A DNA stretch of 35,991 nt. Source: a virus (Duplodnaviria > Heunggongvirae > Uroviricota > Caudoviricetes). The notes beneath the pieces were generated by a model. The model made no database searches, was not told the DNA's origin, and saw nothing but the letters and a program-made list of their open reading frames with translations. Below are positions 760-35,991 of the stretch, one piece after another; position 1 is the first letter of the stretch; each line of letters starts with the position of its first letter. The stretch lies in the IMG/VR virus record IMGVR_UViG_3300037483_001818; one strand, written 5' to 3'. The position numbers were made by a program, and so were the translations under genes.

Positions 760-2607
760 CTAGCTCAACATAGATGCGTCTTGCGACGATCCAAGTCTTC
801 CCTGCGGCGAGCTTTCCCTGACCTCGATCGTCGGCCAGTCGACGGGCAAGCCGCCGATGTGCTGCTCGAAGCCCGTACGGCATGCGCTGAGCGGAGGGAA
901 CTCCCACCAGACCGTGCTTCCGTTTTGCGGGTTGCCGCTCGTATCCTTTCCGCGAAAGGCTCCCGAGAACGCGTGCAGACCGGGCGTGCAGCACTTTTCC
1001 AAGAAGCGCGCGAGCCGCGTCGCGCTCGTTCGACGATTAGCGGAGATGCGTTGAGCGTAGGTCAGGTAGTCGTCGACGAGGGCGTCCTTGGGAATCGGAC
1101 TTGTCCAGTTCGGATGAGCTGGACGCAAATGGCCGTCGCGAAGCTTGCCGTACCACCACTCCTCATGGGGCTCCATGGAGTGGAGCTTTTGATCTTGCAG
1201 GGCATCGGTTGTCGGCACGTCGCGATGATTGAAGTGACTTAGATCCATGGTCTGGAGCATGTAGAGCAGATTTGCGAACCCGCCGTCTTCCAGCTCCTTC
1301 ATGATCGCGTTGAAGTACGCCTTGTCACCTTGACGGGTCTTCGCGACATCGAGCACGAGAAACCGACGCTCGTCGTAGCTTGCCGGGACGACCCATTCAG
1401 CGTTGCTCGCCATGATGAGGTGCACCTTGTTGCCGGCCATGCCGGCGTCAACGCCCTTGGCTTCGATCACGAGGGTCTTGCCCGTAATCAGCGCTTTGAG
1501 GACGCTTTCGTGCTTGCGATCTCCCGCCCAGAACGCCTCATCACCGAATAGGACGACGCAGTCACGCAGGTGTGCGTTGAAATTTCCGACGATGTATTTG
1601 GCGTCGGCCACCGCCCAATAGTGCCTCCCAAACAAACGACCGAATACATCAGCGAAGACGGTCTTACCGGTCCCCTTACCGCCGCGGAGGATGATCGCAA
1701 CCTCGCCAGGCACGTTCGGCTTCTGGACGGCACGCGCCATCCAGCAGAGCAGGTACGTGAGCGCATTCTCGTCGCCTCCACAGATGTTGGTCTTGATGTG
1801 CTCGAGATAGCGAAGATGGCGATCTCCTGGCATTGCTTTCATCGCGAAGCCTCTCCAGAGGTTGTACACGCCGGGTTTTTCATCCTTGCCGGGTGAGAAT
1901 GTAATGTTGTGGTACTGGCGTCGGGCGGCATGATCGAGCCACCAGGTGCCGAGTGGTTTCTCCGTCGGGTTGCCATTCTTGTCATAGCCGACCAAGACCT
2001 TTCGGTTGTTATAGCGATTTTTGAAATCGTCGAACGTCTGTAGTGTGATCGCACCGTCACCGCCCTCCCCGTCTAGGCTCTCCTCGTTGCCTGGATCCTC
2101 CATCACGCGGCAGCATCCGCCGTGGTTCTCGATGACGGCGTGCTTTTCGTTGAGCTCTAAGAGGCGCTTGTCCTGAGCGTACTCACGTCCCCGCCGGATC
2201 TGACGCAGGACGTAGCGTTCGATCTCTTCCTGCGCCAGGACGTGCTTGGAAATCTCGTAGCGATCGTCGACGAGGATGCCGTAGATCAACTCGTCGCTGA
2301 CGTTGGCTCGGATCAGGTTGATGCAGACGCGTACGACGAGCTTGTCGGGATCTTCGATCTCGTTGGTCGGATCTCGTCCCTGGACGATATAGACGCGTGT
2401 GCGCTCGTTGATGGTTTCGGGCAGCGCGCTGATCGATTTCAGGCGCTCGGCACCACTCTTGACCTTCGGGATCGTCGGTGACTCGCGGTTCACCGCCGAC
2501 ATGCGGCGAATCTCTTCGCGGATGCGATCGACGGGACTTACCTCCTCGATCGGCTTCTTTGAAGAGGTGCCGTTGGTCCCGTTGCCGTTGGTGCCGTTCG
2601 TGGTCAC
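760..2607 (-). CDS. SF3-type replicative helicase (DUF5906/NrS-1-like P-loop domain) with primase-C-terminal-like helical region
   Basis: Walker A RGGKGTGKT, FNAHL..VLFGDEAF, IMASN and ERRF motifs. Start set at GTG 2607, which overlaps the primase TGA (GTGA); the ORF track extends to 2655. Confidence 0.9.
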   Translation of the reverse strand: MTTNGTNGNGTNGTSSKKPIEEVSPVDRIREEIRRMSAVNRESPTIPKVKSGAERLKSISALPETINERTRVYIVQGRDPTNEIEDPDKLVVRVCINLIRANVSDELIYGILVDDRYEISKHVLAQEEIERYVLRQIRRGREYAQDKRLLELNEKHAVIENHGGCCRVMEDPGNEESLDGEGGDGAITLQTFDDFKNRYNNRKVLVGYDKNGNPTEKPLGTWWLDHAARRQYHNITFSPGKDEKPGVYNLWRGFAMKAMPGDRHLRYLEHIKTNICGGDENALTYLLCWMARAVQKPNVPGEVAIILRGGKGTGKTVFADVFGRLFGRHYWAVADAKYIVGNFNAHLRDCVVLFGDEAFWAGDRKHESVLKALITGKTLVIEAKGVDAGMAGNKVHLIMASNAEWVVPASYDERRFLVLDVAKTRQGDKAYFNAIMKELEDGGFANLLYMLQTMDLSHFNHRDVPTTDALQDQKLHSMEPHEEWWYGKLRDGHLRPAHPNWTSPIPKDALVDDYLTYAQRISANRRTSATRLARFLEKCCTPGLHAFSGAFRGKDTSGNPQNGSTVWWEFPPLSACRTGFEQHIGGLPVDWPTIEVRESSPQGRLGSSQDASMLS

Positions 2608-3731
2608 GCGGCAGCGTCCTTTGACCATTGCCACCGCCACCAGCTGCACTTCCACGCGTCTGCAAGGTCGTGATGTCGTTGGCCAGCTAGGTTTTTGCCT
2701 AGATCGACGATTTGCATCGTGGCCTCGTCGTGCGGCTTCACGTGGTAACGATCAAACGTCCGCGCCGCTGCCCACGCGCGGTCTTCGCGGCCATTTCGAC
2801 CGTGTCCCAGTTGCTCTGTCAGCTCAAGTCCCGCAGCCGTTGCCGCCATCACTGCGCGTGCCGTGTTCTTGATTCCGACATCGTCGTTGTCTGGAACGAT
2901 CAAGAGGACGCCTCTTCGTTGAGCGACGACAGCACCTACAGCGACTGCGATAGCTTCAAGCTGCGCCGCACCTGCCGCACCGAACACAGCCGCCTCGGGC
3001 CAGATCAGATGCGCCACCAACGTATCGGCGAGTCCTTCGACGATGATCGCGACGCGGACCTCTTCTAGCTTTGCCAGCCGCCCGAGCAGGCTCGCGCCCG
3101 CTGTTTGAGATCCGGGGTGTACCAGGAGCTTGCTGTCGCCTCGTAGCATCCGGTACTGGATTCCAGTGAGGTTGCCGGTGGCAAGATCGTGGAGTCGCAC
3201 GGCCGGATCGCCGAACTTTGAGTAGCGGACGGCGTCGTGCTTGAACAAAGGATCCGGATCGATGCCTCGATCGCGGAGGTAGCTCTCACCCGCGACATGT
3301 CGACGATCCAGTGAACTCCAGATGAAGGGCATGCGCGCGCGCGCGCGGTCACGCCTGGCGGTCTCGGCAGCACTCTGCGCTGCACGTCGCGCACGGTGCT
3401 CTTCTAGTAGCTTCGCGTAGTCTTCGTTCGGGATACCGTGGGGAACACCTGCGATTGTGGCGGCGATGCCGAGCGTGCGTTGGAAGTCTTGCTTGGGATC
3501 AATGCCGGCGTAGCCAGCGACGAGATCGAAGATGCCACCGCGTGCGGAGCAATGATGACATGTCCACAAGCCCGTTTCTGGGTGGATCGACACGCTGCCG
3601 CGCTTGAGCTGGCCGCACTTCGGACAGTTCTGGACGCTCCACTGCGAGTTACCACGGTGCTTGATCTCGTAGTAGTCGAGCACCATGGCAGGCGTCAGGA
3701 GCGCGCGTATCGAGACCGCGTCGAGTTTCAT
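2604..3731 (-). CDS. Zn-finger + TOPRIM DNA primase
   Basis: CPKC...CHHC Zn-binding domain, YLRDRGI, TOPRIM IVEGLADTL and VPDND (DxD), C-terminal HDLAD; GGAG RBS. Confidence 0.85.
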   Translation of the reverse strand: MKLDAVSIRALLTPAMVLDYYEIKHRGNSQWSVQNCPKCGQLKRGSVSIHPETGLWTCHHCSARGGIFDLVAGYAGIDPKQDFQRTLGIAATIAGVPHGIPNEDYAKLLEEHRARRAAQSAAETARRDRARARMPFIWSSLDRRHVAGESYLRDRGIDPDPLFKHDAVRYSKFGDPAVRLHDLATGNLTGIQYRMLRGDSKLLVHPGSQTAGASLLGRLAKLEEVRVAIIVEGLADTLVAHLIWPEAAVFGAAGAAQLEAIAVAVGAVVAQRRGVLLIVPDNDDVGIKNTARAVMAATAAGLELTEQLGHGRNGREDRAWAAARTFDRYHVKPHDEATMQIVDLGKNLAGQRHHDLADAWKCSWWRWQWSKDAAA

Positions 3732-7845: not shown

Positions 7846-8543
7846 CCGCCGAGCAGGCACACAAGCTCCGTGAGTTGGTGCTCGTGAACACGCGCGGCGA
7901 ACTGCGGCGTCCGTGGCGCGTGCAGACATCGAACGCGTTGCGTTGCATTGGCACGGACTATGGCGACGGTGATGTCCTGCGTGCGGTAACGCAGTCATCC
8001 GACGGGCAACCTGATCTACTCGCCCCTCCAGCTGTCCTCGACTACATCGTCGCGGCACAGCCGTTGATCGTGCTTGAGCTATTCGAGCAGCGCAAGCGTG
8101 CGTGGAATGCGATCGACCACCTCCGGAACAAGATTGAAGGGCCTGCCCGCGTGTTCGCCGAGGCTGAAGCCATGCGCCGCGGATGGTCGCACATGACCGT
8201 CGAGCAGACGCACAAACTCCGTGCGTTGGCACTCGCGATCCCAAAGGAAACCCGGCGGCCGTGGAGCGTGCAGACGTCGAACTCGTTTCGTCGCATCGGT
8301 ACGGATCGTGGTGACGGCAATGTGCTGTGCGGGGTGACCCGATCCGGTGGACAGGCGGACCTCCTCGCGCCTCCTGGCGTCCTCGACTACATCGTCGCCG
8401 CGCATCCGTTCGTTGTGTTCGAGCTGCTTGACCAGCGCGATCGCGCGGGGCATGCGATCGACTACCTCCGGCACAAGATCGAAGGGTATGACGAGACCTT
8501 CGCCGAGGCCGAGGCGATGCGACTTGGAGGTACAGCAGCGTGA
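7842..8543 (+). CDS. Tandem-duplicated Ead/Ea22-like protein (2 x 117 codons)
   Basis: Halves start MTAEQAHKLR (7842) and MTVEQTHKLR (8193), 351-bp period, both with QTSN..R.IGTD.GDG.VL and VLDYIVAA.P. Confidence 0.8.
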   Translation: MTAEQAHKLRELVLVNTRGELRRPWRVQTSNALRCIGTDYGDGDVLRAVTQSSDGQPDLLAPPAVLDYIVAAQPLIVLELFEQRKRAWNAIDHLRNKIEGPARVFAEAEAMRRGWSHMTVEQTHKLRALALAIPKETRRPWSVQTSNSFRRIGTDRGDGNVLCGVTRSGGQADLLAPPGVLDYIVAAHPFVVFELLDQRDRAGHAIDYLRHKIEGYDETFAEAEAMRLGGTAA

Positions 8544-10447
8544 AGATCCGCATTTCACCCGACCTCGTGCTTGGCGCGGACTTCGTCACGTCGACATCGG
8601 CGATTCTCGCGAAGAAGCGCGTTGGCAAGACCTACCTCGCGCAGAAGATTGCCGAGGGCCTCCTCGCAGCGAACCAGCAAGTGGTCGTGATTGACCTGAC
8701 CTCGGCCTGGTGGGGCTTGCGTTCCAGCGCAGACGGCAAGTCAGCTGGCTATCCGATCACGATCTTTGGTGGCAGGCATGGCGATGTGCCGTTGGAGGCG
8801 ACGGCTGGCGAGATGCTCGCGGAGGCGATCGTCAAAGATCGCTTTTCTGCGGTGCTCGATGTCCGGCTCTTGAAGAAGAGCCAGCGCATCCGCTTCATCG
8901 CCGACTTCCTGGAAGCGCTCTACGACAAGAACACCAAGGCCATGCATCTGTTCATGGACGAAGCGGACGCTTACATCCCGCAGCGCTCGTTCTCTCCAGA
9001 GGAGGCCCGTGCGTTGGGCGCGGCCGACGAGCTCGTACGGCGTGGCGGCATCGGCGGCATTGGTGTGACGATGATCAGCCAACGCGCGCAGGTCTTGAAC
9101 AAGAACGTGCTCTCGCAGGTCGATACGCTATCGATTCTTCGCATGAACCATCCGAAGGACATCGACGCGGTCGAGGATTGGATGAAAAATCATGCGGACG
9201 GGCCACTGATCAAGGAGATCCTGTCCTCGCTGTCATCACTGCCGCGCGGTGATGCATGGCATCTCGATCCCGAGCACAAGGCGTTCAAGCGAATCTCCGT
9301 ATCGGCCAAGAGCACGTTCGACAGCGGCCGAACGCCGAAGGTCGGTGAGCGGATCAAGCCCCCGAAGGTGCTCGCGAAGGTCGACCTCGAGCGCTTGGGT
9401 GAGAGTATCCGCGAAACTGTCCAGCGCGCGCAGGACAACGATCCCAAGGTTCTCCGCGCGAAGATCGCCGATCTGATCAAGGAACGCGATCAGCTCTCTC
9501 GCACCGTGAACGCCGCACCGACGGTGAAGGTAGCTGCAAAGACCGTCGAGAAGACCAAAATCGTCGAGAAACCCGTCCTCAAGGACGGCCAGCTCGCTCG
9601 TACCGAGAAGCTGATCGAACGTGTCGAGGGAATTCTCACCGGGACGACCAAGCGCGTCGAGAAGACCGTCGAGGATGTACGTGAGACGTTCGGTGAAGCG
9701 CTTGCGCGCGCGGAGCGTTCGCTGGACGAGTTGCGCGGTGTGGTCAAGCTCGTCAAGGCAGCCGCTTTGGTGCCTACCTCGGCGCCTATCGAGAAGTCGT
9801 GGTCGAAGGGCGATCCGCTGCACCACGCGTACACCTCGCATCCGCCGACGAAGGCGACGAAGGCGACGAAGGCCGCGAAGACGTCGAAGTCTTCCGCCGC
9901 GGCGAAGAATGGTACCGCGAGCACTGTTCTGAACGGTCAGGCGATCGAGCCGCCTGAGGGTCTCCAGCCTGTGCATTTGCGTCTCCTCTCTTCGATCGCA
10001 TGGTGGGAGAGCATGGGCGTGCAGACGCCGGATCTTGAGGGCGTTGCATTCATTGCCAAGACGTCGTCGAAGTCGTCCGCGTTCGGCAACAATCGCTCGC
10101 GCCTGCGCGCTGGGGGATATATCGATTATCCGAGGACCGGCTGCATGGCGTTGACTGAAGCAGGTCGTGCTGTTGCTCCTCCACCCGAGCTGCCTCGGAC
10201 CAACGAGGCCCTGCACGAAGCGATTCTCCAGAAGATTTCGCCGGTGCTGGGTCGGATGTTGCGTGTTCTGATCGAGGCGTATCCACGCGATCTGCCGCTT
10301 GACGAGCTTGCTACACGCGCGGGCACGAGCCCCACGTCGAGCGCGTTCGGCAACAACCGTTCATGGTTGCGTGCACGTGGTCTAGCCACGTATCCGCGCA
10401 CGGGCTTCGCTCGCGCGACGGAGCTGCTGTTCCCGGAGGGATCGTGA
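8540..10447 (+). CDS. HerA/FtsK-like (DUF87-type) ATPase with coiled coil and two C-terminal winged-helix repeats
   Basis: Walker A AKKRVGKT, Walker B LFMDEAD, GIGVTMISQR..LNKNVLSQ; repeated SSAFGNNRS.LRA.G...YPRTG; GGAGG RBS and GTGA coupling. Confidence 0.88.
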   Translation: MKIRISPDLVLGADFVTSTSAILAKKRVGKTYLAQKIAEGLLAANQQVVVIDLTSAWWGLRSSADGKSAGYPITIFGGRHGDVPLEATAGEMLAEAIVKDRFSAVLDVRLLKKSQRIRFIADFLEALYDKNTKAMHLFMDEADAYIPQRSFSPEEARALGAADELVRRGGIGGIGVTMISQRAQVLNKNVLSQVDTLSILRMNHPKDIDAVEDWMKNHADGPLIKEILSSLSSLPRGDAWHLDPEHKAFKRISVSAKSTFDSGRTPKVGERIKPPKVLAKVDLERLGESIRETVQRAQDNDPKVLRAKIADLIKERDQLSRTVNAAPTVKVAAKTVEKTKIVEKPVLKDGQLARTEKLIERVEGILTGTTKRVEKTVEDVRETFGEALARAERSLDELRGVVKLVKAAALVPTSAPIEKSWSKGDPLHHAYTSHPPTKATKATKAAKTSKSSAAAKNGTASTVLNGQAIEPPEGLQPVHLRLLSSIAWWESMGVQTPDLEGVAFIAKTSSKSSAFGNNRSRLRAGGYIDYPRTGCMALTEAGRAVAPPPELPRTNEALHEAILQKISPVLGRMLRVLIEAYPRDLPLDELATRAGTSPTSSAFGNNRSWLRARGLATYPRTGFARATELLFPEGS

Positions 10448-14961: not shown

Positions 14962-15242
14962 CGCTCGCGGCTCTAATCCTCTTGGACGTCGTCCTCATCG
15001 CGCTGCTTGATGTTGTACGCGTCCGACCGATCGCTCATTGGCTCCGACGACGGCTCGGCGAACAGCGTCTTGGGCGCCTGCCGAGCGTGAGCGTACCGAC
15101 GGCCGAGGGGCTCCGGCAAGATCAATTCCGCCAGCTTGGCGAAGCAGGCACGTACGACCAGCTCACCGCGCCCGTAGTCGACGTGCAGGATCGTGCCGCA
15201 GTTGTGGACGCGGTCGCACGCGAAGGGCGAGGTCGCGGATGA
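14958..15242 (+). CDS. Small protein with N-terminal hydrophobic segment
   Basis: GTGA coupling; LAALILLDVVLIALLDVV. Confidence 0.55.
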   Translation: MTLAALILLDVVLIALLDVVRVRPIAHWLRRRLGEQRLGRLPSVSVPTAEGLRQDQFRQLGEAGTYDQLTAPVVDVQDRAAVVDAVAREGRGRG

Positions 15243-16915
15243 TCACGCCGGACAAAGAGCCTCCGCCACTGTTTCGGCACCAGCAGGAGCTGTTCGACGA
15301 GACGTGCGATCAGGTCGCGTGGGCCATCTTCTTCGAGCAGGGTTTGGGCAAGACCGCTCCGACGATCCGTACGATCGAGCACCTCTACCGTACGAACCGT
15401 ATCGACGCTGCGGTCATCGTGGCGCCCAATGGCGTGCACCGCAATTGGGTGAGCGACGAGCTGCCCAGGCATTCGGGGATGCCGTGGCGGGGTTTCGACT
15501 GGCACTCCGATCGCGCCAAGGGTCAGGACACGGCGCTCGAGAGACTGCTCGCTCCGACGCCGGGCAGGCGCACCGAGCTGGCGTACTTCGCGATCACCTA
15601 CGACGCGGTCTTGACGCCGCGTGGTCGTGCCGCGGTGCTCAAGTTCAAAGAACGTTTCCCGCGGTTCATGCTCGTGATCGACGAGGCGAGCAAGGTCAGA
15701 AATCCCGAGGCGTTGCGCACCAAGAAGGTCGCCGCTCTGCGCCAGTTCGCCTCGCACGTGCGCCTGCTCAACGGTACGCCGATCGGCAACTCAGCGCTCG
15801 ACGTCTACTCGCAGATGAAACTCCTCGACGATCGTTTTTGGATTCGTCATGGCATCGGATCGTTCGTGTCATTCAAAGCGCGCTTCGCGATCGTGCGTAG
15901 GATTCCGGTCGGAGGCGAGGATGATCGCGTCGGCCGTGTTCGGCAAAGCCACGAGCCGATCGTTCCGCACGATGCGACGGCTGAGGGCATTGCCGCGTAC
16001 GAGCAGCTCGATTTCGATCTCGACGAGATCCTGACTGCGGACGAGAAGCGCGCGGTGATGAGACCTGCGGCGACGACGTCGACGTCCGAACCCGTGAAGA
16101 AGACAGTTGGGCGCACGATCGAGGTCGTTGTCGGCTTCCGCGAGCTCGCCAAGCTTAAAGAGATGATCGCGCCGATCTCGACGCGCCTTACCAAAGAGGA
16201 CTCGGGCGTCGAACTGCCACCCAAGCTCTATAGCCGTCTCTTGTTCGATCTGCCTGTCGAACAGCGTCGTGCGTACGATCAGCTTCGCAAGGAGTACATG
16301 ATCGAGCTGGAGTCGGGCACGCTCATCACGGCACCGCTCGCCCTCGTGCGCGTACTGCGTCTCCAGCAGATCGCGTGTGGTTACCTCCCGAACCCTGACG
16401 ATCCCGAGAACCCCAAGCTCTTCTACAACGACGACGGTAAGAACGCGCGGCTCCAGCTCCTGCTTGAGCGGCTCGAAGACACGCCGCACCAGGCGATCAT
16501 CTGGGCGCGTTTCACGCACGACGTCGATTCGATCTGCCGAGCACTCGGGCCACCGAAGTGCACGCGTTACGACGGGTTGGTCAGCCAGAAGGAGCGCGAT
16601 GCGGGGATCGACGCGTTCAAGCAGGGTAAGAAGAAGTTTTGCGTCGCGAAGGGATCGTCGATGGGCATGGGCCATTCGCTGCCCATGGGAAAGTCCGTTT
16701 TCTACTATTCAAACACGTTCTCCTATATCGAGCGGCTTCAGAGCGAAGACCGATCACATCGCCTCGTGGGTGGCGGCATGTATCCGGTTTGCTACTACGA
16801 CTTTGTCGCGGCGCGGACGGTGGACGAGAAAATCTTGCGCTCGTTTCGCGAATGCCGAGACGTCGCGAATCAAGTTACGGGTGACAGCTACAGGGCTTGG
16901 TTAGAAGAAACGTGA
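15239..16915 (+). CDS. SNF2-family (SF2) helicase
   Basis: FEQGLGKT (I), IVAP (Ia), VIDEASKV (II), LLNGTP (III), IIWARF (IV), GMGHSL (V), QSEDRSHR (VI); start moved to ATG 15239 (ATGA coupling, GAGG RBS). Confidence 0.92.
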   Translation: MITPDKEPPPLFRHQQELFDETCDQVAWAIFFEQGLGKTAPTIRTIEHLYRTNRIDAAVIVAPNGVHRNWVSDELPRHSGMPWRGFDWHSDRAKGQDTALERLLAPTPGRRTELAYFAITYDAVLTPRGRAAVLKFKERFPRFMLVIDEASKVRNPEALRTKKVAALRQFASHVRLLNGTPIGNSALDVYSQMKLLDDRFWIRHGIGSFVSFKARFAIVRRIPVGGEDDRVGRVRQSHEPIVPHDATAEGIAAYEQLDFDLDEILTADEKRAVMRPAATTSTSEPVKKTVGRTIEVVVGFRELAKLKEMIAPISTRLTKEDSGVELPPKLYSRLLFDLPVEQRRAYDQLRKEYMIELESGTLITAPLALVRVLRLQQIACGYLPNPDDPENPKLFYNDDGKNARLQLLLERLEDTPHQAIIWARFTHDVDSICRALGPPKCTRYDGLVSQKERDAGIDAFKQGKKKFCVAKGSSMGMGHSLPMGKSVFYYSNTFSYIERLQSEDRSHRLVGGGMYPVCYYDFVAARTVDEKILRSFRECRDVANQVTGDSYRAWLEET

Positions 16916-21933: not shown

Positions 21934-22191
21934 GTGAAGTATTCGCCTGAACAAGCGATGTCGGACGGCGGCGTATCACGCTCTCGCGTGAATGCTGACG
22001 ATCGCGTGCTTCGTCTCCATCCGGCTGTCGGTGTCGTGTGCCCGGGCTGCGGCTCGCGGATCGGTAAGCCCTGCGTTTCGACCGTACGCTCATTCAATGT
22101 TGGTACGATTGGCACGCCGATCGAGGGTGTTCACGTCGAACGAATCGCCGCGGCGCGTGAGCGCGCGGAACGCGACCAAGGGGTCACGTGA
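21934..22191 (+). CDS. Small Zn-finger protein (CPGC..GKPC...H.ER)
   Basis: GTG 21934 with GAGGTG RBS (the ORF-track start at 21871 lies inside the hairpin); GTGA coupling to the helicase. Confidence 0.65.
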   Translation: MKYSPEQAMSDGGVSRSRVNADDRVLRLHPAVGVVCPGCGSRIGKPCVSTVRSFNVGTIGTPIEGVHVERIAAARERAERDQGVT

Positions 22192-23420
22192 AGTTCTCTC
22201 CCAACCAAGCAAAGGCACTCGCCGCGATCACGGCATGGCGCCTTGATCCAAACGCAAAGAAGACGTTTTATCTCGCGGGCGTCGCGGGCAGCGGTAAGAG
22301 TACGCTCACGCAGCACGCAGTCGCGGACGTGCGTGGCCGCGTTGTCTACTGCGCGCCGACCGGCAAAGCAGCTCTCGTGATGCAAAGGAAGGGCTGCGAC
22401 GGAGCGAAAACGGTCCACCAGACGATCTATCGGCCGGCCGGCGATCCTCCGTCACCGGAAGTGATCGCGAAGCTACGCGAGGAGATCAAACGGCTCTACG
22501 CGGTGAACGATCCGGGTGCTCGTGCGACGGCCGAGAAGCTCGGCGAGCAGCTGAAACGCTCCGAGGAAGACAGCAAGCGCAAGGGCCCCAGGTTCTCGCT
22601 GAATCTTGAGAGCGCATTGAAGACGGCCGCTATTGGCGTGGTCGATGAATGCTCGATGGTCGATAAGTTCATGGGCCAAGACCTTGAGTCGTACGGCGTC
22701 AAGCTTCTCGTGATCGGGGATCCGAACCAACTGCCGCCGGTCTATGGCTCGGGTTATTTCACGAGCCGGGAGCCGGATGCCTACCTCGACGAGATCCACC
22801 GTCAGGCACTCGACAGCCCGATCTTGCGTCTCGCGGACCTCGCCCGTCGCGGCGAACGTCTGCCGGTCGGTTTAACCGGCGATGGCGTTGACGTGCGTCG
22901 CTACGGAGATCCGACGCTGGAGGAGCGGGCTCTCAAGGCCGAGATGATCATCGTCGGCCGCAACCAGACGCGTCACGCGACCAACCACAAAATTCGGCGG
23001 CTGCTTGGTCGCAACGATCAGCCGTCTCCGGTCCAGGGCGATCGTGTGATCTGTCGTCGCAACAACCACGATCTGGGTCTGCTCAACGGCTCGTCATGGA
23101 TGGTCGACCGCTGTGTTGCGGATCTGGAGAAGATGACGGCGAAGATTGAAGTGATCTCCACGGAGGAGGATCACGAACGCATCGAGTGCTCAACGTGGCT
23201 GCACCACTTCATGGCGCGCGAGAAAGAACTGCCCGATCACAAGCGTCGCGAGCACGACGAGTTCTCGTATGGGTGGGCGATCACCGCGCACTCCGCGCAA
23301 GGCTCCCAGTACGATGACGTTCTCGTCTTCGACGAGTCGCGGCAGTTCGGCAAGGATGCTCCCAAGCACCTTTACACGGCGATCACGAGGGCAGCAAAGA
23401 CGCTGACGGTGGTGGTGTGA
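22188..23420 (+). CDS. Dda/RecD-like SF1B DNA helicase
   Basis: GVAGSGKST, APTGKAA, VDECSMV, GDPNQLPPV, EIHRQA, WAITAHSAQGSQY, YTAITRA. Confidence 0.95.
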   Translation: MKFSPNQAKALAAITAWRLDPNAKKTFYLAGVAGSGKSTLTQHAVADVRGRVVYCAPTGKAALVMQRKGCDGAKTVHQTIYRPAGDPPSPEVIAKLREEIKRLYAVNDPGARATAEKLGEQLKRSEEDSKRKGPRFSLNLESALKTAAIGVVDECSMVDKFMGQDLESYGVKLLVIGDPNQLPPVYGSGYFTSREPDAYLDEIHRQALDSPILRLADLARRGERLPVGLTGDGVDVRRYGDPTLEERALKAEMIIVGRNQTRHATNHKIRRLLGRNDQPSPVQGDRVICRRNNHDLGLLNGSSWMVDRCVADLEKMTAKIEVISTEEDHERIECSTWLHHFMAREKELPDHKRREHDEFSYGWAITAHSAQGSQYDDVLVFDESRQFGKDAPKHLYTAITRAAKTLTVVV

Positions 23421-24900: not shown

Positions 24901-25187
24901 TCGCCTGCCCGCGCTGCGGAGCCAAGACACGCGTCCTCGAGACACGCGTGACGGCGACGAGCGCGCGGCGTCGCCGCGGCTGCACGGCCAGCGGCTGTTC
25001 CGGTAAGGTTACGACCGTCGAGGTTGTCGTGCCGGAGGGTCGCGCCTCGGCCCTTGCCACGGGGAGCATCGTGGTGTCCGCGCGACAGATCGCGAAGCTG
25101 CGTGAGCTGGTCGCGGCGATCGAGGGAGGGCGGCAGATCGCGAAGCTGCACAAGCTTGTCGCTGCGATCGAGGAAGGCGCGTTGTGA
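24897..25187 (+). CDS. NrdR-like N-terminal Zn ribbon without ATP-cone
   Basis: CPRCGAKTRVLETR...RRRRGC...C..KVTTVE; C-terminus is a 16-aa imperfect duplication (48-bp period, 25086/25134). Confidence 0.78.
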   Translation: MIACPRCGAKTRVLETRVTATSARRRRGCTASGCSGKVTTVEVVVPEGRASALATGSIVVSARQIAKLRELVAAIEGGRQIAKLHKLVAAIEEGAL

Positions 25188-27193
25188 AGGACGCTGGGTG
25201 GCTTCAGACACCACTCTGGTCGCCAGAGATCACGTGGAAGCCTACGCCGGTCTCGGAGCTGCCAGCTTGGACCGATGCGAAGCGGATCTGTGTCGATGTC
25301 GAGTGCCGCGACGACGATCTCTACGAGCTGGGCCCTGGTGTTCGCCGCGGCGGCTACGTCTGCGGCATCGCGTTCGCGATCGAAGATGGTCCGGCGCACT
25401 ACCTGCCGATCCGCCACGAGGGTGGCGGCAATCTGCCCGAGCAGCAGGTGTGGTCCTACCTCCACGATCAGGCACGCGATTTCACTGGTGAGGTCGCGTT
25501 CAACTCAGCGCCGTACGACCTCGACTATTTGTGGGAGAACAAAGTCGAGTTCAAGAAGGCCAAGGCGCACCGGGATGTTCAGGTCGCCGAGCCGCTGCTC
25601 GACGAGCTCCAGAAGACGTACGGCCTTGATGCGATCTGCGCCCGTCGCGGCCTAGTCGGTAAGGACGAGACTACGCTGCGTGAGCATGCGAAGGCGTGGG
25701 AGGTCAACGCGAAGAAAAGCTTGTGGCGCCTTCACTCCGGTGCGGTAGGCGCTTACGCGATCGGCGACGTCCGCGCTCCGCTGCCGCTGCTCCGCGTGCA
25801 GGAAAAGGAGATTGACGAGCAGAATCTTCGCGAGACGTATGATCTCGAGTCTGCGGTGACGCCTGCTCTCGTGCGCATGACGCGCCGGGGGATGCGCATC
25901 GACCTCGACGAGATGGATCGCGTCGAGGCGTGGGCCAAGGAGCGTCTCCAGAACTACATCGACCAGATCCATCATCTGACCAACGTTCGGATCGGATCGA
26001 TCAGCAACGCAGAAGAGGTAGCTCGCGCCCTTCGGGCTCGCGGCCTCGATGTGCCGACCCGCACTCGCAAGGGTACGGGCCCCGGTACAGGCAAAGCCGC
26101 GAAGGTGGAGGCGTCGGTCACCAAGATCTGGCTCCAGCAGCAGACGGACGAGGTTGCCAAGGCCGTGGTATCCGGCCGCGAGTTCGTCAAGCTCTTGGGA
26201 ACGTACGTCGCGGGTTTCCGCAAGCATCTCGTCGGCGATCGGATCAATCCGACGTTCAAGCAGCTCGTCGGGGCCAGCGACGAGGATGATGGCGACGATG
26301 AGGATGCTGAGGGTGCGCGGTTCGGTCGTTGCTCTGCCAAGCATCCCAATGTTCAGGCACAGATGAAGCGGAGTAAGGAGATCCTGAAGCGCTGGCGAAA
26401 AGTGATCATTCCGGACGAGGGGAAGCGCTGGTTCAAGGCGGATCTAGGCCAACAAGAACCGCGCATTACCGTTCATTATGCGGAGCTGGTCGGGCTGCCT
26501 GGTGCGACGAAGGCCGGAAACGCGTTTCGCGACGATCCGTGCTTCGACCCGTACCAGCTCATGGTCGAGCTGTGCAAGACGCCCGCTGATACCGACCTCA
26601 AGCAGTTGCGTGATGACCTCAAGGAAATCTATCTCGGCCGCTGCTACGGCATGGGTGGCGGCAAGCTCGCGAAGAAGCTCAAGTTGCCTACGGTGTGGAA
26701 AACCAACGAGCGTACCGGATTTACCTACGAGGCCGCGGGTCCCGAGGCGCAGAGTAAGATCGATCGTTTCGACCGCGGCGTCTCCTACGTCAAGGCACTC
26801 TCGCGACGCTGTACTAAGAGGGCGCAAGAAAAGAAGTACATCGTCGCTCTCGGCGACCGGCGTGTCCGCTTCGAGCTAGGCGAGAACGGCGAAATTCTAG
26901 ATGAACACAAAGCGCTGAACAAGTTGATCCAAGGTTCTGCGGCACATCAGACGAAGACGGCGCTCGTTCGCCTCGACGCGGAAGGGTTTCCCCTTCAGCT
27001 CACTGTTCACGACGAATTTGGTTATTCGGGGGACAATGAGGACGAGGCACGCCGCATGGGCGAGATCACTTGCGACGCTGTCGTGATCCGCGTGCCGTTC
27101 CGCTGCGACATCGAAGCAGGACCAAACTACGGTGAGCTGACGAAACTGTTCACGGTGGCGAGCAAGCACACGACGCTTTCGATGGCTGCGTAG
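25184..27193 (+). CDS. polA: Phage family A DNA polymerase with 3'-5' exonuclease, no 5' nuclease
   Basis: Exo I DVE, Exo II FN..YDL, Exo III YAIGD; GARFGR..AKHPNVQ; motif A DLGQQEPR; motif B KEIYLGRCYGMG; motif C VHDE. Confidence 0.96.
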   Translation: MKDAGWLQTPLWSPEITWKPTPVSELPAWTDAKRICVDVECRDDDLYELGPGVRRGGYVCGIAFAIEDGPAHYLPIRHEGGGNLPEQQVWSYLHDQARDFTGEVAFNSAPYDLDYLWENKVEFKKAKAHRDVQVAEPLLDELQKTYGLDAICARRGLVGKDETTLREHAKAWEVNAKKSLWRLHSGAVGAYAIGDVRAPLPLLRVQEKEIDEQNLRETYDLESAVTPALVRMTRRGMRIDLDEMDRVEAWAKERLQNYIDQIHHLTNVRIGSISNAEEVARALRARGLDVPTRTRKGTGPGTGKAAKVEASVTKIWLQQQTDEVAKAVVSGREFVKLLGTYVAGFRKHLVGDRINPTFKQLVGASDEDDGDDEDAEGARFGRCSAKHPNVQAQMKRSKEILKRWRKVIIPDEGKRWFKADLGQQEPRITVHYAELVGLPGATKAGNAFRDDPCFDPYQLMVELCKTPADTDLKQLRDDLKEIYLGRCYGMGGGKLAKKLKLPTVWKTNERTGFTYEAAGPEAQSKIDRFDRGVSYVKALSRRCTKRAQEKKYIVALGDRRVRFELGENGEILDEHKALNKLIQGSAAHQTKTALVRLDAEGFPLQLTVHDEFGYSGDNEDEARRMGEITCDAVVIRVPFRCDIEAGPNYGELTKLFTVASKHTTLSMAA

Positions 27194-29348: not shown

Positions 29349-29548
29349 TGACAGCAACTACGCTTCCTACGATGATCGTCGAGGACGTCGAGCTGCGCGC
29401 TCGGCCCGGTTTCCACGGTGATTCGCTGGCCTGTGATCACGTCTGGGAACCGCATCTTCCGGATACCGGACGCGCGTACTGCCCGCGCTGTGGGTCGTTC
29501 GCCCGCTGGGTGAACGATCCACGCGCAGCAGACGAGGAGGCGTCGTGA
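29348..29548 (+). CDS. Small Zn-finger protein (CDH...CPRC)
   Basis: TGATG coupling; GGAGG RBS. Confidence 0.6.
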   Translation: MTATTLPTMIVEDVELRARPGFHGDSLACDHVWEPHLPDTGRAYCPRCGSFARWVNDPRAADEEAS

Positions 29549-30444
29549 GCGACGTGCAAAGTGATCACACGATGAACGTCGTGGTGCTGGACGTGGAGAC
29601 AACCGGCAAGGAGCGCGCGACGGATCAAATCATCGAAATGTGCATCCGTTTCGGCGTCGGACCGAACGCGGATGCACGCACATGGCGCATCAAGCCTGAG
29701 GTCCCGATCCACCCCGAGGCGATGGGGGTGCACGGCATTACGATGGAGGCGCTCGCTGACTGCCCGCTGTTTCCTGCCGTGGTCTCCGAGTTCCTTCCGC
29801 TGATCGTGAAGGCTGACGTGATCGTCGGTTACAACGTGGTCTTCGATCTGGATATGATCCAGGCCGAGCTCGCGCGCGCGGAGATGCCGCCGTTTAGTCT
29901 CGCCGGCAAGCAGATCGTCGATGTGCTCAGGCTTTGGCACTACGTCGAACCCAGAACCCTCGTCGCGGCGCACGCCAAGTTTTGCGGCGAGGCGTTGGTC
30001 GACGCGCACCAGGCCACGGCGGACGTGGCAGCGACCGCACGTGTGCTGTCTTCGATGTTGGCGACGTTCGGGCTCTCCGGGAAGCCGTGGGATGAAATTG
30101 CTGTCCTCTCAGATCCGTACACCAGTCGTGCCGCGTGGCTCGGGCCGTCGCCGCACATTCAATGGGACGCAAGCGGTGCTGTCGTATTTGGCTTCGGCAA
30201 GTACAAGGGGCAACAGGTGGTCCACGCCGATGGGGGATTCCTCCGGTGGGTACTTGGCAAGGACTTCCCTCCACACGTCAAGAAAATCTGCCGCGTCGCT
30301 CACGAGCGGCGTCGAAAATTCGACGAGTGGATCGCGACCTACTATCCACGGCCTGAAGCGAAAGGCGCTGACTCGACGTCCTCGGTACAGGAGCCTGATC
30401 CATTCGTGACGGACGACTCTTCCGCGCAGGGGAGTGTGCCGTGA
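29545..30444 (+). CDS. DEDDh 3'-5' exonuclease (DnaQ/ExoX-like)
   Basis: VLDVETTG, HGIT, GYNVVFD, AHQATADV; C-terminal FGFGKYKG module. Confidence 0.9.
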   Translation: MSDVQSDHTMNVVVLDVETTGKERATDQIIEMCIRFGVGPNADARTWRIKPEVPIHPEAMGVHGITMEALADCPLFPAVVSEFLPLIVKADVIVGYNVVFDLDMIQAELARAEMPPFSLAGKQIVDVLRLWHYVEPRTLVAAHAKFCGEALVDAHQATADVAATARVLSSMLATFGLSGKPWDEIAVLSDPYTSRAAWLGPSPHIQWDASGAVVFGFGKYKGQQVVHADGGFLRWVLGKDFPPHVKKICRVAHERRRKFDEWIATYYPRPEAKGADSTSSVQEPDPFVTDDSSAQGSVP

Positions 30445-32461: not shown

Positions 32462-32685
32462 CGGCGGCCACCAAAATTTCGTTCTGCGTTGACTGCGCGA
32501 CTCCAATCATTGGCGCGCGGCTTCGTTGTTCGGCATGTCACGACTGGCACACCGTTACGGTGTCGGTCCCGAGGTCGACGCGGTCGTTGTCGGGTCGCGA
32601 GGAGCTGGTAGCGTGGCTGGGCGCTGCGCTCATCGTCGTTGTCATCGTGATTCTCCTGGTGGTTGCAGGAAGGAGTTGTTCGTGA
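32458..32685 (+). CDS. Zn-finger + C-terminal transmembrane-helix protein
   Basis: AAGGAGG RBS; CVDC...CSACH; LGAALIVVVIVILLVVA. Confidence 0.62.
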   Translation: MTAATKISFCVDCATPIIGARLRCSACHDWHTVTVSVPRSTRSLSGREELVAWLGAALIVVVIVILLVVAGRSCS

Positions 32686-33653
32686 CGTCTCTTGCACAGG
32701 TGACTGCTCTCGTTGACGCGCACGTGCATCGGGACGACTGTCGCTTCCGGGTGATCACGCACCAGATCGCGGCGCACGTTGCATCGAGATCCGAACGTGG
32801 TGCTGATCAACTACGCAAGCTCGTGGACAACCAACAGGCGATGACTCTCGTCCCGCTGCCGAGCGCGAGCGGTCTGTTGTCCTCACCGGCGGATCTATCC
32901 ACGCTGGATGACATGACTCTCACGCCCGCGGTGCGTGATCGGCTCGACCGCGTCGTGCTGGAGCATTCGCGTCGGTTCGACCTTTTCGTCCGCGGTCTCC
33001 GTCCCGCAAGCAAGCTTCTTTTCACGGGACCGCCGGGAGTGGGTAAGACGATGGCGGCGGGCGCGCTCTCAAGGGCGCTTGGCATGCCGATGTTCCGCGT
33101 CGACCTGCATGGAGTGATCTCGCAGCATCTTGGCGAGACAGCCGGCAAGCTTGCCAAGGTCTTCGAGCATGTGCGATCGATGTCGGCTGTGTATTTGTTT
33201 GATGAGTTTGACGCGCTCGGCGCGGAGCGCTCGTCGCTCGGCAGTGAGGGCGGTGGCGGTAGTGAGATGCGGCGCGTTGTCAACTCGCTCCTTCAATTTA
33301 TCGAGGATGATCGGTCGGAAAGCCTGATTGTGGCCGCAACCAACCATGATCAGATGCTGGACTCCGCGCTCTTCCGACGGTTCGACGAGGTCGTCACGTT
33401 CGGCAGTCCGACGAGGGACGAAGTGATCGCCCTCGTTGGCCGCAAGCTCGTCGATATCGACGCGAGCCAACTCGACGCGAACGCCATCTATTCAGCGGTC
33501 GCCAATCCAAAGCTCGGGCATGCGGACGTGTGCACCGCCCTCGATCGCGTGCGGAAAGATCACATGCTCGTGGGAACCGCGATCGATACCCATGCGATCG
33601 TTGCGGCTCTTGTGACGCGAACGCGTGCACCTTCGTCGGAGGTGCTCTCGTGA
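32682..33653 (+). CDS. AAA+ ATPase, IetA-like
   Basis: GPPGVGKT, YLFDEFD, EMRRVVNSLLQ, AATNH...LDSALFRRFD; N-terminal H..DD.RF....QIAAH helix I recognise from ATPases normally paired with S8 peptidases. Confidence 0.9.
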   Translation: MTSLAQVTALVDAHVHRDDCRFRVITHQIAAHVASRSERGADQLRKLVDNQQAMTLVPLPSASGLLSSPADLSTLDDMTLTPAVRDRLDRVVLEHSRRFDLFVRGLRPASKLLFTGPPGVGKTMAAGALSRALGMPMFRVDLHGVISQHLGETAGKLAKVFEHVRSMSAVYLFDEFDALGAERSSLGSEGGGGSEMRRVVNSLLQFIEDDRSESLIVAATNHDQMLDSALFRRFDEVVTFGSPTRDEVIALVGRKLVDIDASQLDANAIYSAVANPKLGHADVCTALDRVRKDHMLVGTAIDTHAIVAALVTRTRAPSSEVLS

Positions 33654-33904
33654 GCGATCAGCTAGCACACACCGTGGTCCGCTGCACGCGCGTCGGCGAT
33701 GACGGCTCGTGCGGTCGCGAACAAGCGGTGGCTTTGAATGATGCGGGCATCGGCGTCCGTGTGGCGACGACTGTTTCCGACGAGATCGAGGCATGGCTGT
33801 CCTCCTTCGGATGGCGCCGTGTGGATGGCTCCTTCGGATGGCGCCGTGTGGATGGCGGTCGTTGGCTGTTCCCGTTCTGCGCACGGTGGGAAGGTTCATC
33901 GTGA
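33650..33904 (+). CDS. Small hypothetical protein (C...C...GW...W...C)
   Basis: GTGA-coupled at both ends; GGAGG RBS. Confidence 0.55.
   Translation: MSDQLAHTVVRCTRVGDDGSCGREQAVALNDAGIGVRVATTVSDEIEAWLSSFGWRRVDGSFGWRRVDGGRWLFPFCARWEGSS
33802..33856 (+). repeat. Perfect 27-bp tandem duplication (SFGWRRVDG x2)
   Basis: CTCCTTCGGATGGCGCCGTGTGGATGG read twice. Confidence 0.95.
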
Positions 33905-35520
33905 GCACACTCGATGTTGTTGCCGATGTTCTGCGTGAAGTTGCGCCACGGGCGCTCAAAGCTCGCGAAATCGCTGCATTGGCCGGCGATCGACTGCCGA
34001 CCGCGTCTCGTACTCCTGAGACCGTGGTCCGTCGTGATCTCTCGATCGACGTGAAAGGCCGGGGCGCAGCCTCACGTTTTCTCCGCGTTGATCGCGGGGC
34101 GTTCGTGCTCAAGGAAGCGTTGCCGACTGCGTTCTATAACGATGTCGATCCATACGTCGCGCAATGGACCCGCAACTTGATCGAGGCTGGACACCTTGCA
34201 CCAGGAGTCGTCGATGAACGATCGATCCGAGATCTCAAGCCCGCAGACGTTGCCAGCTACCGACAGTGCCATTTCTTCAGCGGTCTCGGTGTCTGGAGTC
34301 GAGCGCTCCGCGACGCAGGCTGGCCCGACGATATCCACGTGTGGAGTGGAAGTTGTCCATGCCAGCCGATTTCCTCGGCCGGCAAGCGCCTCGGCTTCGC
34401 CGACGAACGTCACCTCTGGCCCGAGTGGTTCCGACTCATCCGAGCGTGCCGACCTGCTGTACTCTTTAGCGAGCAGGTTGCGAGCAAGGATGGACGGGCT
34501 TGGCTCGACGCTGTACTCAATGACCTGGAAGGAGCAGGTTACGCCTGCCAAGCGTACGATCTGCCAGCTTGTGGCGTCGGTGCGCCGCACCGACGCCAAC
34601 GTCTCTACATCGTGGCTTACGCCCGTGAGAGAGGACGCACGATCCTCGGCGCGTCATGGCTACATGATCGAGGGCAATCAAGGCACGACGCTGCTCGACG
34701 CTGCTCGGCTCACGGCGGAGCACCCGCTGCCCTATCCGACGCCGCAAGCGCACGATGCACGTCCTCCCAAGACACCGGATCAGATCGAGGCGATGCGAGC
34801 ACGCGCACCGAAGCGTATCTCTGGCGGCCCGCCGGGGATCTCGAACCTCAACGAGGTAGTGCAGACCATGAGGACGGCGTCGTATCCGATGCCGAACGCA
34901 TCGTGCGGCACCCAGGACAACCAGAGGTCGATCGACACGGTGAAGTTGATGGAGCCGAACTCGATGGAAGCGGTGCCGGCGAGCTGGGCTACGCCTGTCT
35001 CGACGGAGCTGGGGAACACGGTCGAGAACTATCTTGCGATGAAGCGCAACATGAAGAGCGGTCCGCGCAAGGCGATCACGCACCCGTCTTTGCAGGCACA
35101 GCTTACCGCCCCGGCGATCGCGTCCGCATCGTCGGAGATCCCACCTGGGGAGGAGCTGTCGCAGGATTCTGGGCCGAACAAGTCGAGTGGATCTATTGCC
35201 GGCCGGTCCCGGGGCACGAAAACGGGTGCTTCAGGCCAGCTGAATCCGGCACACAGCCGTTGGTTGCAGGGCCTTCCCCGGAGCTGGGACGAACTCGCTC
35301 CAAGCGACTAAAGGGATTTGGCAACGCAATCGTGAGGCCGCTCGCGGTTGCCTTCATCGAATCGGCGATTGAGTCGTTCGTCGACGCGGCGCAAGCATTG
35401 GGTCTTCATGCGATTCACGGCAGTCACGATCCTGGGGCCTTTACGGAAGTCGAAGGCGCCACAGACGTGCACGCGGAGGAAGCTACAGCCGCGCACGTGG
35501 AGAAGGAGAACGCTGCGTGA
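33901..35520 (+). CDS. C5-cytosine DNA methyltransferase alpha chain with N-terminal HARE-HTH
   Basis: Motif I FFSGLG, IV SCPCQ, VI EQV, VIII HRRQRLYIV, X RLKGFGNAIV; motif IX absent from this frame; GTG 33901 coupled. Confidence 0.9.
   Translation: MSTLDVVADVLREVAPRALKAREIAALAGDRLPTASRTPETVVRRDLSIDVKGRGAASRFLRVDRGAFVLKEALPTAFYNDVDPYVAQWTRNLIEAGHLAPGVVDERSIRDLKPADVASYRQCHFFSGLGVWSRALRDAGWPDDIHVWSGSCPCQPISSAGKRLGFADERHLWPEWFRLIRACRPAVLFSEQVASKDGRAWLDAVLNDLEGAGYACQAYDLPACGVGAPHRRQRLYIVAYARERGRTILGASWLHDRGQSRHDAARRCSAHGGAPAALSDAASARCTSSQDTGSDRGDASTRTEAYLWRPAGDLEPQRGSADHEDGVVSDAERIVRHPGQPEVDRHGEVDGAELDGSGAGELGYACLDGAGEHGRELSCDEAQHEERSAQGDHAPVFAGTAYRPGDRVRIVGDPTWGGAVAGFWAEQVEWIYCRPVPGHENGCFRPAESGTQPLVAGPSPELGRTRSKRLKGFGNAIVRPLAVAFIESAIESFVDAAQALGLHAIHGSHDPGAFTEVEGATDVHAEEATAAHVEKENAA
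34214..35311 (+). CDS. Overlapping alternative-frame methyltransferase beta chain (365 aa; motif IX + TRD-like repeats)
   Basis: AGGAG RBS 6 nt before ATG 34214; QLNPAHSRWLQGLPRSW motif IX-like; repeated (W/Y)xTP modules; nested entirely within the alpha gene. Confidence 0.8.
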   Translation: MNDRSEISSPQTLPATDSAISSAVSVSGVERSATQAGPTISTCGVEVVHASRFPRPASASASPTNVTSGPSGSDSSERADLLYSLASRLRARMDGLGSTLYSMTWKEQVTPAKRTICQLVASVRRTDANVSTSWLTPVREDARSSARHGYMIEGNQGTTLLDAARLTAEHPLPYPTPQAHDARPPKTPDQIEAMRARAPKRISGGPPGISNLNEVVQTMRTASYPMPNASCGTQDNQRSIDTVKLMEPNSMEAVPASWATPVSTELGNTVENYLAMKRNMKSGPRKAITHPSLQAQLTAPAIASASSEIPPGEELSQDSGPNKSSGSIAGRSRGTKTGASGQLNPAHSRWLQGLPRSWDELAPSD

Positions 35521-35759
35521 ACGTCAACGCTGCCGACAACTTCCACGTGATCGCCCAGGACGTTCATGGCAGACCCGTGTGTTGTTCGTACTGCGCACGT
35601 GGCGTGAAGCATGTTGTCGTGCTGCCGATCACTGATCGGCCCGGGTCTGCTCATCTAGCTCGCGCGGCTGACGGCGAGGAGCTGTGGATGGGCCTATGCG
35701 CGTACTGCGTGCTCGCGATGGCGAAGGCGCTCGCTCGCGCAGAGGAAAAACGCCCGTGA
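35517..35759 (+). CDS. Small Zn-finger protein (CSYC...CAYC)
   Basis: AAGGAG RBS, GTGA coupling. Confidence 0.6.
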   Translation: MNVNAADNFHVIAQDVHGRPVCCSYCARGVKHVVVLPITDRPGSAHLARAADGEELWMGLCAYCVLAMAKALARAEEKRP

Positions 35760-35991
35760 AGCACGAGAGCCTCATGTGGCGCAAGCTTCGGCCGGCCCTG
35801 ATGGAGGCCAAGCTTGATCCCGTGCGCGTCGAGAATCCGATTCATCCGGGAACGCCGGACGTGAACCTCTCCAACGGGAAGTGGATCGAGCTGAAGTGCA
35901 TCCTGAGGTGGCCTGTCCGGGATACGACCATCGTCAGGATCTCGCACTTTACGCCACAGCAGCGCGTTTGGCTTTATCGACGCTGGAAGTA
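35756..35991 (+). CDS. PD-(D/E)XK nuclease, VRR-NUC/resolvase-like (3' truncated by window edge)
   Basis: My translation: VKHESLMWRKLR...RVEN...GTPDVN...WIELK...FTPQQRVWL. Confidence 0.8.
   Translation, partial: MKHESLMWRKLRPALMEAKLDPVRVENPIHPGTPDVNLSNGKWIELKCILRWPVRDTTIVRISHFTPQQRVWLYRRWK

Follow-up and report, generated by a model that had tools for sequence, protein, structure and literature searches.

Related Two-Chain and Modular C5 Methyltransferases

M.EcoHK31I of Escherichia coli HK31 (YGGCCR; Lee, Kam and Shaw 1995) is a C5 methyltransferase composed of an alpha and a beta chain, and its beta chain is nested in another reading frame of the alpha gene (PMC2836561, PMC3404938). Methylation requires both chains, and the activity is abolished without the beta start codons (PMC2836561). 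The predicted recognition domain is reported to be located on the alpha chain, and motif IX alone on the beta chain (PMC3404938, PMC2836561). M.AquI (CYCGRG) is a naturally split two-subunit C5 methyltransferase, the small chain of which contains motifs IX and X (PMC3404938). The subject of the present work is a locus from a DNA stretch of 35,991 nucleotides (nt) with a G+C content of about 62% (IMG/VR virus record IMGVR_UViG_3300037483_001818; the whole stretch is called the window below). This locus contains a methyltransferase gene, alpha, and a second gene, beta, which lies inside it in another frame. Very probably, the product of this locus is an orphan DNA cytosine-C5 methyltransferase, belonging to a phage or prophage and made of two polypeptides, which are read from the same DNA in two reading frames.

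The parallel with M.EcoHK31I had been drawn in an earlier note made from the sequence of the window (the original prediction), and it holds in part. As in M.EcoHK31I, the beta gene is located wholly inside the alpha gene in the other frame; the alpha chain has motifs I–VIII as well as X, and a motif IX-like element, recognized by eye and by its conservation, is found on the beta chain. The part that does not carry over is the position of the recognition region. Compared by description with M.EcoHK31I, where the recognition domain is on alpha, the window locus has its conserved modular region on beta, and the part of alpha that follows motif VIII and precedes motif X is unconstrained and predicted to be disordered. 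No labelled copy of M.EcoHK31I was found in the plasmid collection. Also unlike M.EcoHK31I, the window gene is not accompanied by a restriction partner; no restriction gene adjoins it in its neighbourhood. The locus resembles M.AquI in that the enzyme is divided between two chains within the variable region, and differs from it in that motif X is on alpha and beta is nested over its full length.

The multispecific C5 methyltransferases of the Bacillus phages SPR, phi3T and rho11s type are single chains, in which each module has reportedly been shown by experiment to give one target. Like these enzymes, the window locus has tandem short distinct modules, which are combined differently among related phages. 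Set apart by description, it differs from them in that a second, nested chain carries the array and in that all modules begin with (W/Y)PTP. The literature mentions methyltransferases of Bacillus phages that have several target sequences, and M.BatI is an unrelated short single-chain enzyme (PMC8936443). The alpha and beta proteins of the window match phrog_363 and phrog_1008, which are database groupings without a stated mechanism. The literature search revealed no paper describing the nested family or the WPTP motif in methyltransferases. The additions made here are the combinatorics of module types, their turnover within a clade, an endonuclease insertion read through by alpha, and a clade-specific N-terminal extension.

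Organization of the Alpha and Beta Genes

All parts of the two genes are on the plus strand. A scan of the window for open reading frames (ORFs) showed that the main frame is free of stop codons at positions 33793–35520. The alpha gene (33901..35520; 539 aa) was delimited in it using the ORF, the motifs, and the matches to PF00145 and phrog_363. The GTG codon at 33901 was taken as the start, based on the first residues of the close relatives (loci L164–L167 and L169) and the GGAAGG sequence 6 nt upstream. Motif I HFFSGLG (34270–34290), motif IV SCPCQPIS, which is the catalytic Cys motif (34351–34374), the ENV-like motif VI FSEQV (34465–34479), motif VIII HRRQRLYIVAY (34588–34620), and motif X GFGNAIV (35314–35334; 3′ of the beta stop codon) were all found in the main frame, as the original prediction had stated, and inspection of the translation revealed no motif IX in the alpha frame, again as had been claimed. 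The motifs agree with the patterns FxGxG (I), PCQ (IV), QxRxR (VIII), and GN(A/S)(V/I) (X) of DNA cytosine-C5 methyltransferases. Many of the motif residues are invariant or near-invariant among 64 relatives. The G and N residues of motif X are invariant in the alpha alignment (A2), and a contact of this motif with beta residues 349–354 is predicted.

The similarity of alpha to known methyltransferases is evident from several searches. The score against Pfam PF00145 is 69 bits (cut-off 22), the match covering only profile positions 59–165 of 324, i.e., the motif IV–VIII part; the score against TIGR00675 is 48 bits and is under the cut-off of 100.65. Alpha matches phrog_363, labelled as DNA methyltransferase, at 3e-71, and M.HhaI is matched by the alpha sequence profile at 2e-16.

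Three other parts of alpha can be distinguished. An N-terminal extension of about 75 aa (33901..34125) is conserved only in the close clade of the window (L164–L167 and L169) and is possibly a winged helix. A HARE-HTH identity was tried for this extension and was not confirmed: the Pfam search gave no hits at E ≤ 1, and the PDB sequence hit, 4ham_A, was weak (E = 0.99). Between motifs VIII and X, alpha is rich in G, D, R, E, and A. Most of this stretch is a linker of about 180 aa (34621..35163), which lies over the beta modules and was delimited by codon positions, sequence identity, AlphaFold2 (AF2) modelling, and stop avoidance. The linker is followed by a pre-X element, GFW...C...RP...PL (35164–35262), with invariant W, C, R, P, and L residues, located over the motif IX-like end of beta.

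The beta gene (34214..35311; 365 codons) is in the +1 frame relative to alpha and ends with a stop codon at 35309–35311. The original prediction had described this second frame as having its own AGGAG ribosome-binding site and a motif IX-like end, and both are present; the AGGAG sequence (34203–34207) is 6 nt 5′ of the ATG at 34214. The protein starts with a Ser/Pro/Thr-rich leader of about 75 aa (34214..34440), delimited by codon positions and AF2, which lies over alpha motifs I–VI. It is followed by a helix and a hairpin (residues 79–126), which lie over alpha motifs VI–VIII in a doubly constrained stretch (34448..34620). The four predicted (W/Y)x(T/M)P modules are indeed found in beta, with their starts at 34613 (WLTP), 34733 (YPTP), 34883 (YPMP), and 34985 (WATP). 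The motif IX-like end, QLNPAHSRWLQGLPRSWD (35237–35290), was identified by its likeness by eye and by conservation, and its L, S, R, W, L, and W residues are invariant. The motif IX-like QLNPAHSRWLQGLP and the modular region were placed on beta by position, conservation, and the predicted complex. The overlap of the alpha pre-X element with the end of beta forms a second doubly constrained stretch (35164..35311), supported by codon positions and invariant residues.

Beta matches phrog_1008 (1e-20), which is also labelled as DNA methyltransferase. The word-index search revealed at least 2876 homologues, none with a Pfam domain, and the exhaustive profile search indicated that the beta family comprises 25,198 clusters at 50% identity with E ≤ 0.001, or 8,829 clusters at E ≤ 1e-30. 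A search of the ESM Atlas with beta returned unnamed clusters only, mostly viral. Single-chain relatives, with the beta core and a catalytic domain in one polypeptide, were found neither in the best 120 word-index hits nor in the best 150 profile-search hits. The longer hits (500–610 aa) are beta chains with an inserted endonuclease domain, and the search for shorter forms gave fragments only. The beta leader looks dispensable.

Selection on the Two Reading Frames

For the comparative analysis, 160 loci were fetched by beta peptide patterns alone, 80 of them from genomes belonging to a wide range of phyla and the other 80 from contigs of viruses; with three annotated phages added, the set comprised 163 loci. 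The landmarks, defined by regular expressions, missed part of the loci, leaving 69–111 of about 160 usable, and the pooled statistics describe this subset. In all 163 loci, beta is located at +1 of the N-terminal alpha match. The C-terminal alpha match belongs to the same ORF in 120 loci, does not belong to it in 6, and was not found in 37, and alpha ORFs span the beta region in nearly all of the loci. A tblastn search revealed co-located alpha-like and beta-like matches, offset by one base, in phages of Burkholderia, Xanthomonas, Ralstonia, Rhodobacter, Erwinia, and Salmonella. Both frames are open in epsilon15, PhiXhv-5, and vB_E264, and they recur down to a G+C content of 51–53%; the low-GC members with both frames are epsilon15 and an E. 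coli prophage (L168, strain ECCTRSRTH03), in which the frames are intact at 1147–2361 for 404 and 343 codons from stop to stop.

Differences by codon position were counted in 13 pairs of related loci, including the window versus three relatives with 65–75% alpha identity. Over motifs I–VI, the differences at alpha codon positions 1, 2, and 3 are 0.12, 0.10, and 0.33, and the fastest position is the third position of alpha. Therefore, the beta leader is free in this part. Over the linker and modules, the values are 0.29, 0.17, and 0.15; here the fastest position is the third position of beta, and it is the alpha linker that is therefore free. In the motif VI–VIII stretch (0.16, 0.09, and 0.22) and in the pre-X/motif IX stretch (0.17, 0.11, and 0.20), the two frames share the constraint. 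The values 3′ of the beta stop codon are 0.27, 0.29, and 0.44. The levels of identity to the three close relatives are 0.82 for the N part of alpha, 0.64 for the alpha linker, 0.56 for the beta leader, and 0.83 for the beta modules. The GC content by codon position is consistent with the frame switch.

Both frames are kept open far more often than would be expected. When beta codons were resampled synonymously, 2.3 stop-free alpha linkers were expected, whereas the linker is stop-free in all 111 loci; in the case of the window's own linker of 207 codons, only 0.3% of the trials gave a stop-free sequence. When the alpha protein was fixed and its codons were resampled, the expected number of open beta leaders was 30.8, versus 98 of 111 observed.

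The beta starts are conserved as well. A beta-frame ATG is found at −59, −53, −35, or −23 nt from motif I in 131 of 140 loci, and the window uses the one at −53. These ATGs are formed from the conserved Asp-Glu and Asp-Val codons of alpha. At −36, the Asp of alpha is encoded by GAT in 102 of 134 cases; the share of GAT elsewhere in these genes is 36%. Most of the called proteins in the set of the 150 best cluster representatives start at profile position 3 or 9; we equated these positions with two of the conserved ATG sites. Thus, selection acts on alpha and on beta in alternating segments, stop codons are avoided in both frames, the start sites of beta are conserved, and the whole family shares this layout.

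Predicted Structures and Proposed Assembly of the Two Chains

In the AF2 model of alpha, constructed using a 64-row alignment and a chain starting from 34120, residues 1–197 have predicted local distance difference test (pLDDT) values of 85–97, and a confident C-terminal helix follows motif X. A Foldseek search with this model revealed M.HaeIII (1dct) as well as M.HhaI at about 1e-7, with about 190 columns aligned. According to the model, the alpha catalytic domain has the C5-methyltransferase fold. Chain residues 198–323, which correspond to the linker, have pLDDT values of 30–39, and the unconstrained linker is predicted to be disordered. As for beta, the values are 40–49 in the leader and 76–90 in residues 76–123, where a helix (76–96) and a hairpin (101–123) can be noted.

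The complex was predicted for alpha with beta residues 78–365, together with three controls, and judged against a mark attained in 58 of the 80 solved complexes and in 2 of the 110 mismatched pairs. The scores of the alpha–beta complex are 0.90, 0.90, and 0.89, versus 0.00 for the best of the three controls; the runs share at least 55% of contacts, with a partner pLDDT of at least 49. The predicted interface is formed by beta residues 79–123 and 339–365 with the N-terminal helix, motif I, motifs VI–VIII, the pre-X element, motif X, and the last helix of alpha, and beta residues 79–123 contact alpha chain residues 121–176. The prediction supports binding of the two chains, although the score may rest on the likeness to solved single-chain C5 methyltransferases. 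Together with the gene layout and the switch in selection, the predicted complex agrees with the two-chain enzyme with a nested alternative-frame chain that the original prediction had proposed.

The following scheme can be suggested. Alpha would provide the catalytic part and motif X, joined by about 180 unconserved, unfolded residues, and this linker would exist only because the ribosome must traverse the DNA coding for the recognition region of beta. Translation of beta would start at its own AGGAG–ATG just 5′ of motif I. After the leader, the helix and hairpin of beta would dock onto alpha, four modules of about 30–60 residues each would replace the target-recognition domain, and the motif IX-like end would pack on motif X and the N-terminal helix of alpha. 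The order of parts in the DNA (I–VIII, recognition region, IX, and X) would then be that of an ordinary single-chain enzyme, with the middle read one base later. We infer that the chains assemble, that the enzyme methylates cytosine, that the modules read DNA, and that the enzyme may protect phage DNA from restriction.

Alternative Explanations

Several other explanations of the locus should be weighed against a two-chain enzyme. The window has a G+C content at which long spurious ORFs are common, and the NCBI pipeline annotates the E. coli copy as two pseudogene pieces; both facts would fit a broken gene or an assembly artefact, in which a pseudogene carries two compensating indels and the second frame is a by-product of the high G+C content. 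We consider such an artefact exceedingly unlikely. The same +1 offset with both frames open is found across the 163 loci, also at the low end of their G+C range, which speaks against a pseudogene with two compensating frameshifts; the selected frame switches along the gene; stop avoidance is far above expectation; beta-like proteins form thousands of clusters; and the diversity of the loci excludes copies of one assembly error. Chance ORFs, a pseudogene, and an assembly error are excluded by the offset, the codon switch, the stop avoidance, and the start sites taken together. Selection of this kind could also be produced by a single polypeptide, if the ribosome shifted by +1 after motif VIII and back before motif X. 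The segment order and the alternating selection would fit a chain that changes frame twice, but recoding leaves unexplained the alpha linkers without a single stop in 111 loci, the open beta leader, and the conserved beta-frame ATGs near motif I with their biased GAT codon. Moreover, a recoded chain would skip the pre-X element, yet this element has invariant residues and a constraint shared with beta. Two efficient shifts would be needed, and no signal for them was seen, although slippery sites were not searched for systematically. Apparently, recoding is very unlikely.

Beta could instead be a real overprinted protein that is not a methyltransferase subunit, for example, an accessory or counter-defence protein, and alpha would act alone or with a host factor. 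The absence of detectable similarity between beta and known recognition domains speaks for this, as does the mostly low confidence of beta alone in AF2. In that case, however, alpha would have to act although its part from motif VIII to motif X contains nothing conserved or folded and motif IX is missing, whereas the motif IX-like end of beta sits exactly at the position of motif IX in single-chain genes. In addition, beta is never found without alpha in the 163 loci, and the predicted complex, scoring 0.90 versus 0.00 for the best control, puts the end of beta on motif X. On balance, an unrelated role of beta appears very unlikely.

A number of facts weigh against the two-chain enzyme itself. 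One of the frames is interrupted in 4 of the 163 loci: alpha in L033, L073, and L143, and beta in L156. Of the 131 loci with a conserved ATG, only 72 have an SD-like (Shine–Dalgarno-like) 4-mer before it. Searches of Pfam, NCBIfam, and PDB sequences with beta gave nothing apart from a chance hit to a dipeptidyl aminopeptidase (E = 0.35), and the assignment of beta as recognition domain plus motif IX relies for this reason on its position, a short motif, and the predicted complex. Beta alone is poorly folded in the model (mean pLDDT 54.8), and the module region is of low confidence in the complex too. Experimental evidence for translation of beta, assembly of the chains, or activity was not found for any member of the family. 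The two-chain enzyme nevertheless remains, in our view, the reading to which the locus most probably corresponds.

Diversity and Turnover of the Beta Modules

To describe the modular region, 337 distinct beta cores were cut at each (W/Y/F)x(T/S/M)P, and the resulting 1204 pieces were clustered. About 15 module types of 16–75 residues, with a median spacing of 36, were revealed. Each core contains from one to nine modules, and 226 arrangements were found among the 337 cores, such as BA, DBA, BMEA, CEKA, and HJLC. At the end of the array, the module that passes into motif IX belongs to type A in 232 cores and to type C in 77. The array of the window is H-J-L-C. Most members of its clade have the same array, HJLC, and HJILC, H.JLC, HJLLC, HLC, JLC, GLC, GC, and JC are found as well; the relative P0008 has an extra module of unclassified type. 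These variants indicate gain and loss of modules between close relatives.

Larger insertions can be noted in the sister clade (L167 and L169). There, an endonuclease VII/HNH-type domain is located in the beta frame between the leader and the core, at about 3300–3900 in L167 and about 2560–3160 in L169; it matches phrog_3322 at 1e-27 to 7e-30 and phrog_1035 at 1e-24 to 3e-29. In the other frame, the insertion falls in the alpha catalytic domain between motifs VI and VIII, and in these two diverged loci alpha is open through the extra 200 or so codons, which gives 904 and 856 codons from stop to stop. The inserted domain may represent a homing endonuclease, either domesticated or mobile, that is fused to beta.

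The codon-position switch, the free and disordered linker, the turnover of modules, and the endonuclease insertion read through by alpha all support, at the level of sequences, the proposal that modules expand in the beta frame while the alpha frame tolerates this expansion, as the original prediction had put it. The combinatorial arrays are compatible with the multispecificity proposed there. That the enzyme is in fact multispecific, with the (W/Y)PTP modules acting as independent target-recognition units, can be suggested only tentatively. Were each module to recognize DNA separately, phages would possess a compact countermeasure to restriction that is readily re-targeted. It is also conceivable, though we would not favor it at present, that the nested layout serves as an evolvability device, in which beta modules are inserted, deleted, and shuffled without harm to the catalytic chain, since alpha would read them as a disordered linker for which freedom from stops is enough. 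If true, this would explain the 226 arrangements among the 337 proteins.

Annotation of the Family and Its Significance

The annotation of the family in databases is inconsistent. In epsilon15, PhiXhv-5, and vB_E264, it varies between alpha only, both genes, and beta only, and Xanthomonas phage PhiXhv-5 is the one GenBank phage record with both nested coding sequences. In the assembly of the window, the gene call for beta was cut down to its last 215 residues, from an internal Met onward (P0010). In the relatives L164–L167, the gene caller took beta and dropped alpha. In the E. coli prophage copy mentioned above (L168), RefSeq has alpha as two "incomplete" pseudogene pieces, and beta is unannotated; a gene encoding an MT-A70 family methyltransferase is located directly upstream of this copy. 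Neither Pfam nor NCBIfam contains a model for beta. Thus, gene callers give alpha or beta and rarely both, and protein databases lack one half of the enzyme. Accordingly, many of the database entries for phage "cytosine methyltransferases" would be half enzymes with a meaningless middle. Codon-optimized cloning of the annotated alpha alone would destroy beta and lead to false negatives in methylome work.

Long same-strand overlaps in bacteria and phages are usually doubted. In the present case, about 365 codons are read in two frames, and the comparative evidence is as strong as sequence alone allows. If the evolvability reading is true, this overlap would rank with the longest and most widely distributed same-strand gene overlaps conserved in viruses of prokaryotes. 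The locus is also a natural test of two proteins sharing one sequence, in which singly and doubly constrained zones alternate and a free zone tolerates insertions of the size of a domain.

Genomic Context

According to the PHROG matches, the window is a phage-type replication module. It encodes a primase (760–2655, minus strand), a helicase (15038–16915), a Dda-like helicase (22188–23420), a DNA polymerase (25184–27193), and a polymerase exonuclease subunit (29545–30444), and a weak terminase-like match is found at 8540–10447. An AAA ATPase gene (32526–33653) precedes the methyltransferase in the window and in all close relatives. The called protein of the window sits on a contig of 328,796 bases; therefore, the window is probably a prophage or a phage-derived island. 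Orphan phage methyltransferases are usually read as protecting phage DNA from restriction, and by analogy, the window enzyme may have an anti-restriction role.

Several minor features were noted around the methyltransferase. The upstream ORF (33530–33904) contains an exact 2 × 27-bp tandem duplication at 33802–33855 with the unit CTCCTTCGGATGGCGCCGTGTGGATGG. The duplication doubles the FGWRRVDG(S/G) peptide, which is present as a single copy in the relatives L164 and L167. The TGA stop codon of this ORF (33902–33904) overlaps the alpha GTG at 33901 (GTGA), and this stop/start overlap suggests that the upstream ORF and alpha may be translationally coupled. A similar overlap is found at the other end of the gene, where the GTG codon at 35517 of the ORF 35517–35759 overlaps the alpha TGA (35518–35520). 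This ORF encodes 80 residues with two CxxC pairs and is located downstream in L165 too. The next ORF (35684–35989) runs off the end of the window and is conserved downstream in L165 and L166; its GTPDVN...GKWIELK sequence resembles by eye a nuclease motif of the PD-(D/E)xK or VRR-NUC type.

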